IMG/VR virus record: IMGVR_UViG_2579779067_000003
Length of the DNA stretch: 46,439 nucleotides
From: a virus
Lineage: Duplodnaviria > Heunggongvirae > Uroviricota > Caudoviricetes
Strand: one strand, 5' to 3'
Shown here: piece after piece, positions 28,079-37,837 of the stretch
Layout of the letters: the number at the start of each line of letters is the position of its first letter
How positions within the stretch are numbered: position 1 is the stretch's first letter
The notes under the pieces: generated by a model
Seen by the model: the letters and a program-made list of their open reading frames with translations, nothing else
Databases searched by the model: none
Told to the model about the DNA's origin: nothing
Translations under genes and position numbers: made by a program

Positions 28079-28349
28079 GATGTTACCGTAGTATGTGAGT
28101 ATCCATCGAATAGATACCAAGCAAAAAAGCTCCCGAAGGAGCCTTCATTTTCACTTTTTTAAATCCAACGACAGACGGCTGGCATTTAAGTATTGTGAAA
28201 TATTATCAAATGTAATCATCATTGATTTACAAAAGATACATTTTGCCCCGAAAGGATTCATGTCAGAAACATCAAAAGATGATGTTCTATACTGGGAACC
28301 ATGACAACACGGGCATCTAAAGTGAATATGGTTTGTAATATTGTCTACC

Positions 28350-28562
28350 TCAAAGCGCCACTACATGAACAGCGGCAGGACCTTTAGGTCCGTTCTCAAT
28401 ACCAAATTCAACTTCCTGATTCTCAGTTAATGTTTTGAAATCGTTGCTCTGAATTGCTGAGAAATGGACAAACACATCTTTGCTGCCATCTTTCGGCGTG
28501 ATGAAACCAAAACCTTTTTCAGGGTTAAACCATTTCACTAAACCAGTCATTTTGTTAGACAT
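28350..28562 (-). CDS. cspI: Cold shock protein CspI (CspA family)
   Basis: 70 aa [38 protein letters not shown]... with RNP1/RNP2 cold-shock motifs; long 5-prime untranslated region upstream. Confidence 0.9.
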
Positions 28563-28925
28563 AATTATTACCTTTTGAAGAAATTAGCCCTTGGGCAGAA
28601 TGGTCCGAAAAAAAATATCAGAGAGAAAAACCAACAAGGAAATCTCAAGAGGTACAAATAATAAAATTATAACAATGACTGCTTCAGATAAATTTGTAAC
28701 AAACCAGAACACCATTAACGCATGATTAACCACCCATAGCAAGGATTACTTTTGTAAAGAAAAACACAGCAATGAAAGAATAGCTTTATTTATTAATAAT
28801 AACGTGTCATTCTGATTAAGACCTTTTATCTTACCCTTAAGATTTCAGGAATTTTGGCTCATGGAAGAGTCCTTTTTATTTAAATTTTACATTCCGCGAT
28901 GTAAATGTTCCGATTTAATATTACC

Positions 28926-29949
<1,024 letters not shown>

Positions 29950-29953
<4 letters not shown>

Positions 29954-30261
29954 AGATATTTATGATGAGGACGCTCGTGCTTATTGGCAGGATTTTCAAT
30001 CTTAAAGGAGTACTGATGCTGCAGATAAGACTCAACTTTTTCTGACAATTTTTCTGCTACTTCCAGGAAGACTTGCCGGACGCTCATTCTGGCTGCTGCC
30101 TCATAAAACTCCAGCGCAGCTCCTTCAACACGGTCCATGGCGACATCCAGGCCAAAAATTTCACCGTCAAAGCGTTCTTTGTCCTGTAAGGCTACAGTTA
30201 CCGTAACTTTATTCTCAAAATTACGGACTCCTTTCACAACCAGTTCATAGTCTTGAGTCAT
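29950..30261 (-). CDS. ydfR: YdfR (DUF1327) protein within lysis cassette
   Basis: 103 aa between holin and lysozyme; stop overlaps lysozyme start (ATGA). Confidence 0.7.
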
Positions 30262-30265
30262 TGGA

Positions 30266-30481
30266 TTACTCTCCTCTCGCAGCCTTACGCCTGTCTTCTT
30301 TAATCTTGAAATAAAGATTTGTCAGATACGTCAGCATGCCAAATACCAGACTACCCAATACACCTATTGCCGCCCACTGTGAGGGCGTGACTTTATCGAG
30401 CAACTGTAAAAACCAGTAGCCAGCACTGCCTGCAGAGGTGCTGTAGGCGATGCCCGTTGTTAACTTATCCATGGATTTCAT
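30266..30481 (-). CDS. essQ: Holin (phage 21 S-like class II pinholin) with dual-start motif MKSM
   Basis: 71 aa [71 protein letters not shown]; two TM segments; GGAGGTG upstream; track ORF extends 28 codons upstream. Confidence 0.85.
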
Positions 30482-30571
30482 AGCCTCACCTCCGCAGATA
30501 ACGGATGGTGTACACGGTTTGGTTCGAAGAAGGAAAGAAGTTACATTAGCGTAAGGCCCGAACATCTATTC

Positions 30572-30602
30572 AAAAAGAAAAACGCCAGCAATTATTCTGG
30601 CG
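30572..30602 (-). terminator. Intrinsic terminator downstream of the AraC-family gene, upstream of holin
   Basis: Plus-strand A-rich run then CGCCAG-CAATTATT-CTGGCG; on minus transcript hairpin followed by UUUUUCUUUUU. Confidence 0.5.
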
Positions 30603-30671
30603 TAGCTAAAAATATCGTATAATCTTACACTTCAAAAAATAACTTTATAAAATGCCATCACATCATATCTT

Positions 30672-31394
30672 CTAAGAAAATCTTGATAAATATTGGTGCG
30701 GAGGCACACCAAAATATCCTCTAAAAACACTTACAAAATATGATGCATTGTCATACCCGCATATTCCCGCCACCTTGCCGACAGTATGGTTACTGTAGAT
30801 CAATAATCTTTGCGCCATCATCATTCGTTCTTCAAGAATTAATTTACTAAACGATAATCCTTCGTCTTTTAATTTTCTTTTTAACAAACTCTCGCTCATA
30901 TATAATCTTGAAGATATATCACAAAGTCTCCATGACGCTGAGATATCCGAGTGAATAATAGCCTTAACTTTACAACCTAAGCTATTAAGACTTCCGAACA
31001 AAAAACTTTGCACTATTTTCTCTGAAGATAAGACAGCAAGACATGCAAGTGATATTTGATTTCTAACTACATCCACGGTTTTGCTATCACAATTCAAGCA
31101 TGCAACCAAGTTCTTTAACAATGAAAAATCTTCACATTCTACTATCAAGTATGACGGATAAAACCTTCTTACAGAAAAAGGTGAGAGTGTGTAGTTTTTA
31201 AAGAAATCATTAACTGTTTTCTCCTCAACATCTACGATCATTAGATGATCTGTATTTGACGAAAAAAGATCTTTTAAATTGTATTCAATGAGGACAGCAT
31301 TTCCTTTTTTAAACAAAATATCTTCTTTACCAATTCGGACACCAAACGAGTTCAACACCAAAATGATAGAACATATGTATGGCATATTATCCAC
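30672..31394 (-). CDS. AraC/XylS-family transcriptional regulator (AT-rich cargo gene)
   Basis: 240 aa with C-terminal AraC-type HTH region (…MAQRLLIYSNHTVGKVAGICGYDNASYFVSVFRGYFGVPPHQY); AT-rich gene and upstream region. Confidence 0.8.
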   Translation of the reverse strand: MDNMPYICSIILVLNSFGVRIGKEDILFKKGNAVLIEYNLKDLFSSNTDHLMIVDVEEKTVNDFFKNYTLSPFSVRRFYPSYLIVECEDFSLLKNLVACLNCDSKTVDVVRNQISLACLAVLSSEKIVQSFLFGSLNSLGCKVKAIIHSDISASWRLCDISSRLYMSESLLKRKLKDEGLSFSKLILEERMMMAQRLLIYSNHTVGKVAGICGYDNASYFVSVFRGYFGVPPHQYLSRFS

Positions 31395-31791
31395 CTGATA
31401 TCATTGGGGTTACACCAGGTAAGTATAGGTGGAAAATCAATATTCGCCAGTTCAACAATAAGGAAAATCTCATTGCATCACAACTATAAAACCATGTGTT
31501 TAACTCACAAAAAACAAATCATTAAACTAATCTGTTATATTATAATAGCTGCGTGCAATAATAATATTATATGCTCTTAATATTCACTTGAAATATCTTC
31601 ATATAAAAACAGATTGAATAAAATCTTTTGGGGCTGGTATGTTTACCAACATTAAATTGCATCTCAATGTTTTCTTTAGCGTGAACAGGATTTTTATACA
31701 AACTGACACTATGGGCATCATAGCGTAGTTTTTACGATTGTAAATATCCTGCATACAGGAACTCATCACTTTCAGATGATATCGCATACAG

Positions 31792-32751
31792 TTAATTCAC
31801 CATCAGTCTTAGAGCCAGTTCTTCCGGATAGGGATCGAAGTAATTCTGTGTAAGCAAGTAATCATTAGGATACTCACCCAGATAATGCTTCAGCAGAGTC
31901 AACGGCGCAAGAAGAGGCAATGTGCCAAAGCGATAGTTAAGTATAACCTCGCTCAACTCTTTACGCTGGCGTGTACTTAAGTAATTACTAAAATACCCCT
32001 GTATATGCATCAGCACATTCGTGTGATTTTTACGTGATGCTGGTTTTCTGAGAATCGCCATCAGATTATCACGATACACCTCAAAGTATGATTCAAGGTC
32101 CGCCCACTCGTGTATTGCAGCCACAAATGGTCCCATATCTTTATAGCCTGCCTGGCTATGCGCCAACAACTGAAGCTTATAACGACTATGAAAAGCTAAT
32201 AACTCTCTTCTTGATAATTTCTCCTTGTAAAGATGATTGAGCTCATGCAAAGCAAAAACTCTTTCAATAAAATTCTCACGAAGCACTGGATCATGTAATC
32301 GCCCATCCTCTTCAACCGGTAGCCAGGAAAACTTTTCCATCAAAGTGCTCGTAAATAGTCCCACTCCATCTTTACGACCTCGATTACCATTTTCATCATA
32401 GACACGCACGCGCTCCATGCCACAGCTGGGAGATTTAGCACAAACCACAAACCCCGATACATCCTTTAATTTGTCCATATAAGAACGACTAAACTCTGTC
32501 ATTCTCTCTGTCACATCCTCATTCTGGTCGTGGCTGAAACACATCCGTATATTTCCTTGCTTCGAGCGCACAAGTCGTAGAGCAGGACGCGGAACTGGCA
32601 GCCCTATAGCCATTTCCGGACATACTGGTCTGAATGTTACCCATTCCACTAATTTGTCCATTAAAAAGTCATCTCTTTTGTGACCACCATCAAAACGAAC
32701 AGCAGAACCGCCCAAACAACCGCTGATCCCAATCACAGGTTTTTTTATCAT
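31792..32751 (-). CDS. DUF523/DUF1722 two-domain protein (TudS/YbgA-like)
   Basis: N-terminal GISGCLGGSAVRFDGGHK motif typical of DUF523, conserved Cys at about 12, 44, 105; C-terminal half YbgA-like. Confidence 0.65.
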   Translation of the reverse strand: MIKKPVIGISGCLGGSAVRFDGGHKRDDFLMDKLVEWVTFRPVCPEMAIGLPVPRPALRLVRSKQGNIRMCFSHDQNEDVTERMTEFSRSYMDKLKDVSGFVVCAKSPSCGMERVRVYDENGNRGRKDGVGLFTSTLMEKFSWLPVEEDGRLHDPVLRENFIERVFALHELNHLYKEKLSRRELLAFHSRYKLQLLAHSQAGYKDMGPFVAAIHEWADLESYFEVYRDNLMAILRKPASRKNHTNVLMHIQGYFSNYLSTRQRKELSEVILNYRFGTLPLLAPLTLLKHYLGEYPNDYLLTQNYFDPYPEELALRLMVN

Positions 32752-32943
32752 TTCCTCCCCCTTGACTAATTCATTAACACATAAACTTTGTAATGCACGG
32801 ACTAAATTGCCTTTCTGGCTTCATCACTGACAATTTTTCTGTTATGGACTATTCCTAATATAGTAGGAAAGTTCTTTAAGTGATCGGTCGTACTCATCTA
32901 TCTTTCATACTTACTCTCAACTATCAAAAGTACAGGATTTATT

Positions 32944-33468
32944 ATGAAGTTATGGCCTGTGTTGACTGGCATTGCACTCTCTTTCACTCTTATAGCATGT
33001 AAGGCCCCGACACCACCTAAAGGTGTGCAGCCGATTACAAATTTTGACGCCAACCGCTACCTCGGAAAATGGTATGAAATAGCTCGCCTCGAGAACTGGT
33101 TCGAACGTGGTCTGGAACAAGTCAGCGCTACTTATGAAAAACGGAACGACGGAGGGATTCGCGTACTTAACCGTGGATACGATCCAACGAAAAACAAATG
33201 GAGCGAGAGCGAAGGTAAAGCATACTTTACTGGAGATACTAAAACTGCAGCGTTGAAAGTTTCGTTTTTTGGCCCCTTCTATGGTGGCTATAATGTAATC
33301 AAGCTGGATGATGAGTATAAGTATGCTCTTGTCAGTGGTCCGAACAGAGAATACCTATGGATTCTGGCAAGGACCCAAACTATTCCAGATAATGTAAAAG
33401 CAGACTATGTGCGTACCGCTCAAAAGTTGGGATTCAATGTCAATGAACTATTATGGGTTAAACAATAA
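32944..33468 (+). CDS. blc: Bacterial lipocalin Blc-like outer membrane lipoprotein
   Basis: 174 aa; signal peptide with lipobox LIAC; NFDANRYLGKWYEIARLENWFERGLE and SFFGPFYGGYNVI motifs as in E. coli Blc. Confidence 0.85.
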   Translation: MKLWPVLTGIALSFTLIACKAPTPPKGVQPITNFDANRYLGKWYEIARLENWFERGLEQVSATYEKRNDGGIRVLNRGYDPTKNKWSESEGKAYFTGDTKTAALKVSFFGPFYGGYNVIKLDDEYKYALVSGPNREYLWILARTQTIPDNVKADYVRTAQKLGFNVNELLWVKQ

Positions 33469-33496
33469 AATCCCCACCCGAAATGATACTTATTAG

Positions 33497-33523
33497 AAAA
33501 AAACCAGCCTTTGGGGAGGCTGG
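33497..33523 (-). terminator. Candidate tR-prime terminator downstream of Q
   Basis: Plus-strand A7 (33497-33503) then CCAGCC-TTTGGGGA-GGCTGG; on minus transcript hairpin followed by U7. Confidence 0.55.
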
Positions 33524-33582
33524 CTAAATCAGGAAACAAGCTGTTATATGATAATAACTACGTTGCGATTCCAACATTTAAA

Positions 33583-33611
33583 ATGTTAGACTAATGAAAA
33601 TCAGACAGCAA
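33583..33611 (-). promoter_or_regulatory. Candidate late promoter pR-prime (-35 TTGCTG, 17-nt spacer, -10 TAACAT on minus strand)
   Basis: Hand-identified sigma70-like hexamers just downstream of Q stop and about 60-80 nt upstream of the hairpin terminator, matching the lambda pR-prime/tR-prime layout. Confidence 0.35.
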
Positions 33612-33623
33612 CTTTTCCTTTGA

Positions 33624-34001
33624 TTATTTCGAACAATCAGCATCCATCTCCAATCGGAGATCCAACACCATCAGCATGCCCTCCACTACGCCCTCAGCTT
33701 TCTGGAGCATCCTGCCAACCCAACAATCAGATCGCCCATGCTTACGTGCAAGCGCCATAAAAGTCATGCCGCCGACATAATAGTCCACCAATAAATCATG
33801 TAAATCGCTGTTGTTTTTTTTCAGGCGAGCCATACATTCACAAATGATCATCGCGTCATCGTCACAGCATTGCGGACGAGATCTTACTTTTGAAGGAATT
33901 AATCCCTTAAAACCGGCGGCAATGGACGACCAGGTCACATCTTCATGATTATTAGCCGCCCATGCCCCCCAACGCTCAAGAACCATCTGAATATCACGCA
34001 T
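33624..34001 (-). CDS. quuQ: Antitermination protein Q (small Phage_antitermQ type)
   Basis: [60 protein letters not shown]...; ATG at 33999-34001; track start is TTG extension. Confidence 0.75.
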
Positions 34002-34018
34002 CAACTTACTCCACAAAA

Positions 34019-35068
34019 TTAGGCCAGCACACCAATTGCCAGCGCGCGATCGATAAATCGAAAAATCAGCTCCAGTTGGGAGCCATACTTCTCTTCAAAT
34101 GCCACGGTACCCGTATGCAACTCGTCGTGATGCTTTCTGCACAAAGGCAACACAAAGAGATCATGTGCTTTGGTTCCCATTCCGCCCTGCCCGTGACCAA
34201 TCAGATGATGCGGATCGTCGGCTGGCATACCGCAGCAAGCACACGGCTGTGTCTTAACCCAGCGTGTGTATTTCTCCTTAACCCAACGGTGACGTTTAGG
34301 CAGCTTCATGAAAGATTCCGGAGACTCAGGATCAACGGTGATGCTTACCACCGTTTTTTCCTGTGATGGGTTTTGTCGCTGGTGGGCGTGAGGCAACGGT
34401 GCAAGATTTTTTGTGCGCTGTTTCAATATGCTGGTGGCGGTCTGCTCTCCCGGTACGATGTCGCTTTCGCGGTACACCGAGCAGTTTTTTTCCGCTGGTA
34501 ATCCCAGCGAGCGACGTAATACCGCTTCCGGTAGCGCGTCCGCCACCTGATTGCGGACCGCCCACCAGGATAATTCAGCCAGAGATAATTCACGCTCCTG
34601 CGTACCGCTTATTGCGTGACCGATGACGTCAATCATCCATGCTGACAGGTTTTGATGAGCAAGTTGCTCGAGTGATTCGGATGTCTGGTCACGCAGCTGG
34701 TTGTCGCAGTGCCAGCACAACACCATTGCGCCGGTACCATAACGGTGAATAACGGTTTCGCTGTGATGATAATCGCCGTGTGGCCACTGGCAGGATTTAA
34801 TATGGCGCAACAGCCAGTCAGACAATGCACCAGCACCACCAGCAGTACGAATTACCCGTGCATTACTGAAAAACGGCAGCAATGTTTTGTCTTCCACCAG
34901 CGGCTGGCGAACGGCAGGAACGACCCCGGACGGCAGATTACGCATGCTTTTCGGTTCCGGCTCCACCAGTACCCGGGTATTGTGGAATACCGGCATGGAT
35001 TCACGGCCCGGCTTAACGACCACCAGCCCGAGTTCCGGTACCAGAACAGGTCGAAGTAATACCCGCAC
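34019..35068 (-). CDS. ydfU: YdfU-like protein (DUF968)
   Basis: 349 aa with C-terminal Cys/His cluster ([43 protein letters not shown]); nin-region position. Confidence 0.7.
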
Positions 35069-35894: not shown

Positions 35895-36050
35895 TTACTC
35901 CTCAGGTTCGTAAGCTGTGAAGACAGCGACCTCCGTCTGGCCGGTTCGAATTCGTACCTCGCAAAGGTCTTTCCTCGTTACCAGTGCCGTCACTATGACG
36001 GTTAAACAGATGACGATCAGGGCGATTAACATCGCCTTTTGCTGCTTCAT
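35895..36050 (-). CDS. hokD: Hok-family type I toxin
   Basis: MKQQKAMLIALIVICLTVIVTALVTRKDLCEVRIRTGQTEVAVFTAYEPEE (51 aa); track ORF with 19-codon upstream extension may correspond to the overlapping mok frame. Confidence 0.85.
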   Translation of the reverse strand: MKQQKAMLIALIVICLTVIVTALVTRKDLCEVRIRTGQTEVAVFTAYEPEE

Positions 36051-36280
36051 AGCCTGCTTCTCCTTGCCTTTCGGCACGTAAGAGGCTAACCTACATGTGT
36101 CTAGCATGAAATTGGCCTCAGATTAATGTTAAGCGTCTTGCAGGACGCGTAATGTTAACTGGGGCTTTTCTCTATCTGCCTTTGGTGTTCATGCCTGAGA
36201 CAGATAGCCTCAAGCACCCACGGAAACTTTACTAAAGGAGTTATAGCTTTTCCAGTAGTCTCAACATATTCACATTGCTA

Positions 36281-37837
36281 TTACCTATCAAACAACGGAT
36301 GTATTACAAAATCTCTCTTCATATCAGTAATATCCAAATTAGGTTTATCAAAAGATGAATATATAATTAAAGATGCTGTTTTCCTTATGCCAACCACGCC
36401 TACGACGAACCAGACTTTAAGTAACTCCTCAAAATTCATCAATATTTTTGTATGTTGATCATCCTCTTTAACTACAGTCAATCTATCAAGTAAATGCTGC
36501 GATATATCATCTTTTACTGCTTGTCCTATGTTTGAGACTGTAAAATCAGAAAATGAAATCAAGGAAAGCACATCCAAATATTCTTCGATAAACGGATATA
36601 TGCTTTTCCATTCTGTAACCAAAGCTCTCTTTCTGGACGAATAAAATTTCTCTTCGGCAATTAACACAATATTTTCATTCATGTTAACCATACCATCGCA
36701 CTCAGAAAGACATATATTTACGAAATTAATTGCATCTCTAGGCCTAAGCATTGTTCTGTCAAGGATATAATCATCTGCTCCAATACCTTCAACTGTAAAA
36801 TTAAAAATATCCTTCATTAATACAGACTTATTTGATTGATATCTATTTTTAACCAAATGGTTAATTCTAGCATCAATAATCTCTCTTATTTCCGTTTTAT
36901 TCCATGATATGGAATATATTAAAGATTGATCTTTCTCATCCTGCCTTAAACTACTTTTATAAATTCCCATTAAAATATCTGTTCTTATTGATATCAGAAC
37001 CTTAACCGACTTTATATCTAATAATTCTCGAAAGGCCTCAAGAAGAGCATTAATAAAGTCATATCTGATGGCGCTCGTGCTTAACCAAGATTTATCTAAA
37101 TCATCGATACTGATTACTATTCTAACCTGGTTTGAGTCAGCGAACTCCTCTTTAAGTATTTTAATAAGTTCTTTTTGTTTAAAAAGAAGTTCACGACTCA
37201 CATAACTTGAAGTTTCTGATTGTATTTTGGCTGTATCAGAATTAGATATTTTACCACCCACACCAACAGCGGAATTTCCGAGTTTGAATGACAAATCACT
37301 TTCAAGCTTGTTACTTATTTCAATGAGCGCTTTATCATTGAAGAAATTTTCTTTAAATTGTTCAATATAATCATTCGCAACTTCTGGTTTATACGGTTTC
37401 TTCTTACCACCAATAAGATCTTTAATTTCCTCAAAAAAGCTTTGATAGGAAGAACGATAAACGGCTGGTATAACTTTCATAAGTAATACATGCAGCCATA
37501 ACGATTTATAAAACCCACGTAAATCTATCCCTTTCGAGATCAAATCAGATATAAACACATTGTTATTAATATGTTCAAATATCGTATTTTCTGCCTCTAT
37601 TGTGTCATGCAGCTTAATATTTCCTTTGTCTAATATTTTTTTAAGCAACGCAGACTTACCGCTTCCTGTTCTTCCAACAATAATTCTTCTTGTAAAATCA
37701 GGATTCTTCTCAGTAGAGTCAAAATTCACAATACCTTTAAAAACATTGGACTCATAAAAACAAGCATCAAGATAAGAATCAGTTTCCGCCTCTAATTTTC
37801 CAATCTCATCATTATTTCTGAATTTATAGGCATTCAT
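36281..37837 (-). CDS. AT-rich P-loop NTPase, KAP/PifA-like by motif (candidate phage-exclusion protein); function unproven
   Basis: 518 aa; Walker A GRTGSGKS at about residue 55, Walker B-like IVISIDDLDK about 180 residues later, RPRDAINF arginine-finger/sensor-like motif; sampled 60-nt lines are roughly 25-30 percent G+C versus about 45-50 percent in tail genes (hand counts). Confidence 0.6.
   Translation of the reverse strand: MNAYKFRNNDEIGKLEAETDSYLDACFYESNVFKGIVNFDSTEKNPDFTRRIIVGRTGSGKSALLKKILDKGNIKLHDTIEAENTIFEHINNNVFISDLISKGIDLRGFYKSLWLHVLLMKVIPAVYRSSYQSFFEEIKDLIGGKKKPYKPEVANDYIEQFKENFFNDKALIEISNKLESDLSFKLGNSAVGVGGKISNSDTAKIQSETSSYVSRELLFKQKELIKILKEEFADSNQVRIVISIDDLDKSWLSTSAIRYDFINALLEAFRELLDIKSVKVLISIRTDILMGIYKSSLRQDEKDQSLIYSISWNKTEIREIIDARINHLVKNRYQSNKSVLMKDIFNFTVEGIGADDYILDRTMLRPRDAINFVNICLSECDGMVNMNENIVLIAEEKFYSSRKRALVTEWKSIYPFIEEYLDVLSLISFSDFTVSNIGQAVKDDISQHLLDRLTVVKEDDQHTKILMNFEELLKVWFVVGVVGIRKTASLIIYSSFDKPNLDITDMKRDFVIHPLFDR

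Follow-up and report, generated by a model that had tools for sequence, protein, structure and literature searches.

A three-gene cargo island between the antiterminator Q and the holin of an intact Qin-like prophage of Escherichia coli: a likely composite moron module

Background

In lambdoid phages, the lysis and structural genes depend on a single Q-controlled late promoter located just after Q, and in the Stx phages stx occupies the slot between Q and the lysis genes (Q-S slot). Other prophages carry different cargo at the same place, downstream of Q-pR'-tR' and upstream of the holin: the porin genes nmpC/ompD in DLP12 and 4A7, and cspB/cspF in Qin. Here, we analyse this slot in the virus record IMGVR_UViG_2579779067_000003, a stretch of 46,439 nucleotides (hereafter the window), in which an earlier annotation made from the sequence alone (the first-pass annotation) had noticed a cargo island at 30566-33530 encoding an AraC-family regulator, a DUF523/DUF1722 protein and a Blc-like lipocalin. 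This island resembles the known cargo by its position, and combines genes in the late-operon orientation, as for stx, with one in antisense, as for nmpC. It differs in that its products are neither toxin nor porin and in that it contains no tRNA gene.

Each of the three genes has described relatives. According to Jamontas et al. 2024 (PMC11417400), proteins that fuse a TudS domain to a DUF1722 domain strip 4-thiouridine (s4U) from tRNA and lessen the growth delay caused by UVA; the DUF1722 domain is the proposed tRNA binder. One of them, RudS_vir, once cloned, reduced the s4U of E. coli tRNA in vivo, as did every RudS variant tested, and E. coli itself is said to lack RudS and to retain only the DUF1722 stump YbgA (PMC11417400). 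Among 19 lambda-like gut phages, more than 50% have blc listed as a moron (PMC6969025), and the AraC-type regulators AppY, PatE and PsrB all activate gadE/AR2 acid-resistance genes (PMC10057817, PMC10877973). The logic of the Q-S slot, blc as a moron, the assay of a phage RudS and the prophage AraC regulators of the PatE group are already known. A full-text literature search returned no paper linking ybgA, prophage and lipocalin; the composite architecture of the island, its origin and the recurrent placement of RudS in late operons appear to be undescribed.

An exchangeable module in an intact prophage

We consider it likely that the island is a composite moron module, in which a co-captured blc-rudS pair and a separate AraC unit share the variable Q-holin slot of an intact Qin-like prophage. 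A segment of the E. coli YZ3E2001 chromosome matches the window at 100% identity, and gene assignments (Table 1) were based on the list of open reading frames (ORFs), a Pfam domain search and the RefSeq annotation of this identical genome. According to RefSeq, this lambdoid prophage is complete from the integrase through the tail genes (integrase, excisionase, dicB/dicA-type immunity region, replication genes, hokD, rem, ydfU, Q, lysis cassette, terminase, head and tail). It adjoins rspB/ynfE, where K-12 has the cryptic Qin prophage, and its late operon lies on the minus strand of the window. As the first-pass annotation had proposed, three intact genes fill the interval from Q to the P21-type holin, at coordinates that were right within a few bases, and blc stands on the strand opposite to the late operon. 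Pfam and NCBIfam searches agreed with the three gene identities, the DUF523/DUF1722 protein being RudS. The true start of the holin gene is 30481, the 99-aa ORF reaching 30565 being an upstream extension. All three cargo proteins belong to PHROG families of unknown function.

The alignment with other lambdoid prophages at the Q-S junction, which had been suggested as a check, gave homologous flanks and swapped cargo. Phage 4A7 and DLP12 of K-12 share the Q type (84-87% DNA identity) and the holin, with an antisense porin gene (nmpC/ompD) between them; homology to the window ends at 33642 and starts again at 30501. The K-12 Qin prophage, which occupies that chromosomal site too, carries another Q and cspB/cspF, and is homologous to the window over 28900-30510 (lysis cassette) and again from 34019 (ydfU). 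The Q-blc-rudS-araC module was moreover found behind two nin regions, ydfU/DUF968 and rusA-ylcG (1H12, NCTC8623), and an empty Q-holin slot was not found in any relative examined. The exchanged unit is best described as the quuD-type Q together with its downstream cargo, that is, a mosaic module replacement. The earlier term "inserted" cargo consequently stands as regards dispensable cargo in the Q-S slot and fails as regards a simple insertion, since the Q-plus-cargo module is replaced as a unit. A link to orf10 of prophage phiv142-3 was also considered and discarded as unrelated, the knockout-primer arms sharing no 15-mer with the window.

That the cargo is not needed for phage growth was borne out by the phages with the same Q and holin that have a porin in the slot, and by the existence of disrupted and truncated variants in other E. 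coli, with an IS3 inside araC, an IS2 in the spacer, an IS1 in place of araC or an IS21 inside Q. Together, these comparisons support the core reading: the genes are cargo that the lambdoid prophage can dispense with, located in its Q-S slot. The repeated landings of IS1, IS2, IS3 and IS21 all hit either Q itself or the stretch separating the late promoter from the lysis genes, and could domesticate the prophage. In BL21 (NZ_CP010816 1557354-1558750), Q and blc are kept and an IS3 cuts rudS to its first 147 nt, so that this strain, unlike many wild E. coli, is without RudS.

Among deposited phage genomes, 12 contain the cargo. Island-bearing phages include ones cultivated from infant-gut E. 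coli (PMC6969025), and one is an environmental isolate. Phage 1H12, the Lambda_ev series and IdasGreatGrand have the same order of Q, antisense blc, rudS, AraC gene and holin, and protein identities between 1H12 and the window are 95% for Q, 96% for Blc, 91.8% for RudS and 74.5% for AraC. The window differs from 1H12 by its Qin-like backbone, by ydfU/DUF968 instead of rusA-ylcG upstream of Q and by an AraC protein that is 6 residues shorter at the C-terminus. In complete E. coli genomes, at least 80% of the cargo was found in 889 of 5426 (about 16%) and some cargo in 1153.

All three cargo genes are under purifying selection, at a level comparable to that of Q and the holin. In three pairwise comparisons among the window, 1H12 and IdasGreatGrand lineages, the ratio of nonsynonymous to synonymous divergence (dN/dS) was 0.07-0.17 for blc, 0.11-0.22 for rudS and 0.20-0.25 for araC, and 0.04-0.11 and 0.01-0.09 for the flanking Q and holin genes.

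The blc-rudS pair and its probable chromosomal source

RudS has both expected domains (PF04463, residues 7-149, E 5.8e-40; PF08349, residues 192-309, E 9.4e-40) and is 91.8% identical to its orthologue RudS_vir, which is gp66 of phage 1H12. Cys12, Cys44 and Cys110 align to TudS Cys10/43/104 and are invariant in 12 homologues; numbering of the cluster ligands in RudS_ST and RudS_vir followed Table 1 of PMC11417400. The motifs C44-P-E46 and S107-P-S109-C110 are likewise present and invariant, and were matched by motif position to RudS_KT Glu51/Ser111/Ser113. From the 91.8%-identical phage orthologue, the enzyme should remove s4U from tRNA.

Blc is a member of the Lipocalin_2 family (PF08212, E 7.5e-43), scores above the cut-off of the NCBIfam Blc model (NF007786, 312.6 bits against 267) and matches the solved structure of E. 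coli Blc, 3mbt (E 8e-67). Its lipoprotein signal, read directly from the sequence, is MKLWPVLTGIALSFTLIAC-K, with lipobox LIAC, Cys19 and a lysine at +2. With only 58.6% identity to K-12 Blc, it is not the orthologue of the chromosomal blc beside ampC; it is 75-79% identical, without gaps and at equal length, to the Blc encoded beside rudS in Enterobacter, Buttiauxella and Serratia.

In order to place the pair, 80 RudS loci of Enterobacterales (one genome per species) were compared by a neighbour scan and a neighbour-joining (NJ) tree. Chromosomal RudS fall into two paralogous lineages. Type 1 proteins, 54-63% identical to the phage RudS, are encoded in a rudS-phr (photolyase) operon, of which E. 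coli ybgA-phr is a remnant without the TudS domain. Type 2 proteins, 65-75% identical, include the phage RudS in the tree and occur in three genomic contexts: (i) blc divergent from merR-rudS, in Enterobacter spp., Phytobacter, Buttiauxella and Serratia rubidaea; (ii) merR-rudS alone, in Salmonella arizonae and Cedecea, which matches the ORF242 (MerR)-ORF319 (RudS_ST) pair of Salmonella SPI-2 (PMC11417400); and (iii) rudS as last gene of an SDR/amine oxidase/DUF1365/CFA synthase/DUF2878/DUF3833 cluster, in Citrobacter, Klebsiella, Kluyvera and others. A type 2 rudS thus adjoins either a Blc lipocalin or the CFA-synthase cluster, according to genus.

The first context resembles the phage pair. 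At about 10 sampled chromosomal loci of Enterobacter, Phytobacter and Buttiauxella, and also of Serratia rubidaea, a Blc of 174-175 aa is divergent from merR-rudS, and the divergences of the two proteins match, phage Blc being 75-79% identical to the rudS-linked paralogue and phage RudS 72-75% identical to its chromosomal relatives (68-75% in the comparison with this locus in the Enterobacter cloacae complex, Buttiauxella, Phytobacter and Serratia rubidaea). Because of this equal divergence and of the conserved divergent synteny, we propose a probable joint capture of blc and rudS from a near-UV-stress locus of enterobacteria (blc/merR/rudS), with loss of the MerR/MlrA-like regulator. The literature ties this locus to the UVA-induced drop of s4U in E. 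cloacae. The phage copy differs by the absence of this regulator, by an unrelated spacer between the two genes and by its location inside a late operon.

The blc/rudS spacer is strongly conserved in the four-lineage alignment (96% mean identity), with about 5 differences, by count from the alignment, in the approximately 140 blc-proximal columns, while dS in the coding sequences is 0.2-0.28. Its most conserved part contains the inverted repeat TTCCTA-N6-TAGGAA (32852-32869), perfect over 6 bp, and the best -10 candidates of blc and rudS, which are weak, overlap with it. This repeat resembles an operator for some regulator.

The AraC-family gene as a separate unit

The AraC protein carries a C-terminal double helix-turn-helix domain (Pfam HTH_18, E 3e-16; HTH_AraC, E 6e-11) and shares two-domain architecture and size with the prophage-encoded PatE, PsrA/PsrB and AppY and the chromosomal YdeO; like the prophage regulators of this group, its gene is AT-rich and prophage-borne. 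It is 29.8% identical to AppY (residues 1-235) and 28.8% to YdeO (residues 1-229), that is, 29-30% over the full length. Its best NCBIfam match is YdeO, at 112.3 bits for a cut-off of 348, and the GadX model scores 90 bits for 500; both are below threshold, and the protein is best considered as a relative, not an orthologue, of YdeO/GadX. The protein was also compared with ECs_0287, an AraC-type gene at the end of the Sakai prophage Sp1 that is induced at stationary-phase entry: identity is 47.7%, ungapped over all 237 residues, and reaches 65% in the DNA-binding domain and 88% in the first HTH region. An AlphaFold2 model (pLDDT 90.9) gave Foldseek matches to Rns/CsvR/ToxT over both domains, and its DNA-binding domain superposes on GadX 3mkl with a TM-score of 0.86-0.88. 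Full-length superposition on Rns and ToxT was poor (TM about 0.45, root mean square deviation about 15 Å), the N-terminal domain being smaller; given this result, we do not claim fatty-acid binding by that domain.

Several features set this gene apart from its neighbours. As noted in the first-pass annotation, the gene and its upstream region are AT-rich: GC content is 33.5% in araC and 31.5% in the spacer, compared with 43% in rudS, 44% in blc and 48.6% in the whole window. Synonymous divergence (dS) of araC is 0.59, near that of the holin (0.69), and unlike the 0.20-0.28 of Q, blc and rudS, which places a recombination boundary in the AT-rich spacer. The protein family is nearly confined to E. 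coli mobile DNA, and the PatE-like homologues of mEp332, ev099 and Sakai Sp1 occupy another cargo slot, between the tail fibre and the integrase, and not the Q-S slot. Considering dS, GC content and these homologues, the AraC gene is best viewed as a unit distinct from blc-rudS.

The spacer itself shows lineage-specific indels and is about 85 bp longer in the window than in 1H12; its small ORFs (44-62 aa) were treated as non-coding, since these indels break them in 1H12. Two elements are conserved. One is CTATACTTA (31428..31420), which precedes the araC ATG by about 35 nt. The other is the block just 3' of rudS, with two substitutions in four lineages between diverged flanks (mean 73% identity); its hairpin has a free energy of -13.1 kcal/mol (z -4.3), and the block may be a promoter or a 3'-end hairpin.

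Late-transcription signals around the island

Q is supported by PF06530 (E 8e-51), by phrog_79 ("anti-termination protein Q-like"), by the RefSeq name antiterminator Q family protein and, distantly, by the solved structure of Q21 (E 5e-9). The late promoter pR' presumably lies in the 83 nt that follow, as lambdoid architecture suggests. Near its end, the block CATATAACAG (33550..33541) has a ATATAACAG core that is invariant in all five aligned Q-downstream sequences. The two terminators that had been described at the ends of the island on the late strand were recovered as hairpin/U-run folds (Table 1) and are conserved in related phages: the tR'-like one is kept in 1H12 and IdasGreatGrand, and has no U-run after the hairpin on the blc-sense strand, and the one between araC and holin is conserved in all three island-bearing phage lineages. 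A terminator scan of the region gave 7 terminator-like sites, compared with 3.1 +/- 1.6 in shuffled sequences. Rfam gave a single match within the island, which coincides with the tR' hairpin, scored below threshold and was attributed to chance.

RudS in other lambdoid prophages

A scan of IMG/VR for RudS, followed by neighbour mapping, Pfam searches, identity comparisons and a tree, yielded three further groups of prophages, named here B, C and D, which contain neither blc nor the AraC gene. In group B, the order is NinH, Q, promoter-like site, hairpin/U-run, RudS, csp and holin-lysozyme-Rz, and RudS shares 97% identity with the RudS of a Providencia rettgeri prophage; the succession Q, promoter-like site, terminator and RudS is thus the same in the window and in a Providencia-type prophage. 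In group C, a different Q of 177 aa is followed by RudS, then by lysozyme and terminase. Groups B and C (Providencia/Proteus-type) share one RudS lineage, and RudS is in both the first ORF seen after Q (tR' was looked at in contig L145 only). In group D (Enterobacter-type), RudS lies in the nin region, upstream of Q, and shares 80-82% identity with chromosomal genes of Enterobacter and Kluyvera, among which it is nested in the tree. No full-length RudS of groups B, C or D was found in 50,697 deposited phage records, these groups being known only as predicted viral contigs. From these relationships, RudS has entered lambdoid phages independently at least three times, and in three of the four groups (E. 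coli, B and C) it lies shortly after Q, in the orientation of the late genes.

Discussion

Because the island-bearing phages 1H12, the Lambda_ev series and IdasGreatGrand are viable, with lysis and structural genes downstream of the island, late transcription must cross it. Q-modified polymerase would pass tR', proceed antisense through blc and sense through rudS, the spacer and araC with its terminator, and enter the holin gene. RudS would probably be made in quantity after induction, as suggested by this geometry and by phage viability; with a strong Shine-Dalgarno sequence (GGGGGAGG) and no evident promoter, rudS is the gene likeliest to depend on Q. The phage protein, with its [4Fe-4S]-type TudS domain and DUF1722, should then convert 4-thiouridine of host tRNA to uridine. 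Being antisense to the late transcript, blc must use its own promoter; it would be opposed by late transcription and is probably an envelope lipoprotein expressed in the lysogen. The AraC gene probably has its own promoter in addition to its own terminator, and its product most likely acts on host promoters in the lysogen. As for its targets, the acid-resistance genes gadE and hdeA are our best guess, and a tentative one.

It is also possible, although we lean against it, that the island is purely lysogenic-conversion cargo, in which each of the three genes has a promoter of its own that is active in the lysogen and the location within the late transcript carries no functional meaning. A terminator does follow araC, the conserved blocks in both spacers could be promoters, blc is antisense to the late operon as are lambda bor and DLP12 nmpC, its status as a common moron of gut phages fits, and prophage AraC regulators act in lysogens. 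However, rudS has no recognisable promoter, and the at least three independent captures of RudS, with three of four groups post-Q and co-oriented, are hard to explain if orientation is irrelevant.

The same recurrence raises the opposite idea, which we regard as rather doubtful: that RudS is a recurrent late-operon auxiliary gene instead of a lysogenic-conversion gene, and protects late-protein synthesis at induction. Q-antiterminated transcription would flood the induced cell with an eraser of host-tRNA 4-thiouridine, at a time that coincides with the UV-type damage that triggered induction; less near-UV cross-linking of tRNA, hence less ppGpp-mediated growth arrest, would follow. If so, the prophage would restore an activity that E. 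coli ybgA, with DUF1722 only, has lost.

Several observations weigh against the composite-module reading and the mechanism proposed with it. The alignments across cargo variants and Q subtypes contain no consistent -35/-10 pair for pR', and the blc/rudS spacer holds no convincing sigma-70 promoter for either gene, the best candidates matching at 8/12 on both strands. Even at a word size of 7, the phage blc/rudS spacer has no DNA homology to the chromosomal blc-merR or merR-rudS spacers, so that the end-points of the merR deletion are unmappable, and phage RudS sits in the NJ tree on a long branch outside all sampled type 2 chromosomal sequences; what argues for co-capture is the matching protein divergence and the synteny. 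Concerning AraC, ECs_0287 is equated with PatE by its location in Sp1, taken as O-island 8 (OI-8), and the N-terminal domains of ECs_0287 and the window protein are only 35% identical. Finally, RudS_vir desulfidated tRNA more weakly than other RudS despite good solubility, and gave the shortest lag on 4-thiouracil (PMC11417400); tRNA may not be the main substrate of this type of enzyme.

This last assay, together with the recycling of 4-thio-UMP by stand-alone TudS enzymes (PMC10611767), is what speaks for nucleotide salvage, in which RudS would desulfurise 4-thio-UMP or thiouracil from degraded host tRNA and recycle uridine nucleotides during phage replication. We judge this improbable, since the DUF1722 domain is fully kept and highly conserved and since the viral enzyme was among the RudS that all lowered tRNA s4U in vivo (PMC11417400).

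Decay of hitch-hiking DNA without current function in a domesticated cryptic prophage would account for the IS insertions and truncations common in this region, including in BL21, but it is largely refuted and very improbable, given dN/dS of 0.07-0.25 for all three genes between lineages separated by dS of 0.2-0.6, their intactness in plaque-forming phages and in most of the 889 genomes, and the full gene complement of the window prophage. An anti-phage defence or counter-defence module, suggested by the defence genes often held in variable prophage slots and by a candidate defence ATPase nearby, is just as remote, none of the three cargo proteins matching PADLOC and all belonging to housekeeping or regulatory families with known non-defence activities.

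The composite module has consequences beyond this prophage. The Q-S slot is what makes Stx phages dangerous, and its commensal-type contents show what temperate phages trade. Through this module, about one in six complete E. coli genomes has a functional-looking RudS, contrary to the published statement that the species lacks it, and carriage of RudS affects the interpretation of near-UV and tRNA-modification phenotypes across strains. The repeated placement of RudS in late operons represents a concrete case of a phage-borne tRNA-modification eraser, and the AraC gene is an additional candidate member of the prophage regulators that rewire acid resistance and virulence in E. coli.

Features of the region

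Table 1 Coordinates of the cargo island, its signals and neighbouring features in the window
Feature	Position	Strand	Description
P-loop ATPase	36281-37837	-	518 aa, 30-34% GC; Sll1717 family, NCBIfam 180 bits vs cut-off 75
sok RNA (Rfam)	36045..36219		118 bits vs gathering 59; hok/sok type I toxin-antitoxin
hokD-like ORF	35895..36050		hok/sok type I toxin-antitoxin
ydfU	34019-35068	-	DUF968
Q	33624-34001	-	antiterminator, 125 aa, quuD/DLP12 type
Presumed pR' region	33541-33623	-	candidate TTGCTG-N17-TAACAT at 33611..33583
tR'-like intrinsic terminator	33495-33525	-	9-bp stem then U7; hairpin 33525..33502, -14.9 kcal/mol, z -3.6
blc	32944-33468	+	outer-membrane lipocalin lipoprotein, 174 aa, antisense to late operon
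blc/rudS divergent spacer	32752-32943	none	192 bp
rudS ("YbgA family")	31792-32751	-	TudS domain + DUF1722, 319 aa, co-oriented with late operon
Conserved block just 3' of rudS	31706-31744	-	promoter-like TTTACA-N16-TATGAT (31744..31717), 10/12 match, overlaps hairpin 31726..31706
rudS-araC spacer	31386-31791	none	AT-rich, 31.5% GC
araC-type gene	30672-31385	-	AraC/XylS-family regulator, 237 aa, PatE/AppY/YdeO group
Terminator between araC and holin	30572-30603	-	hairpin 30603..30582 then U5CU5; -11.3 kcal/mol, z -2.6
Holin	30266-30481	-	class II P21-type; PF04971 E 6e-34; RefSeq essD; first lysis gene, downstream slot boundary
cspA-type thermoregulator 5' UTR (RF01766)	28323-28708	-	112.8 bits vs gathering 78; precedes cspI
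cspI	28350..28562		cargo gene

Directly upstream of Q, ydfU has a weak, below-threshold HNH-nuclease-like match at its C-terminus. The cspI gene is a further cargo gene, just downstream of the lysis cassette. On the other side of the island, a hok/sok type I toxin-antitoxin locus was identified at 35895-36219 (minus strand), and the P-loop ATPase, located between hokD and the replication genes, has a weak sub-threshold "anti-phage protein" match and no PADLOC match; it may be a defence gene.

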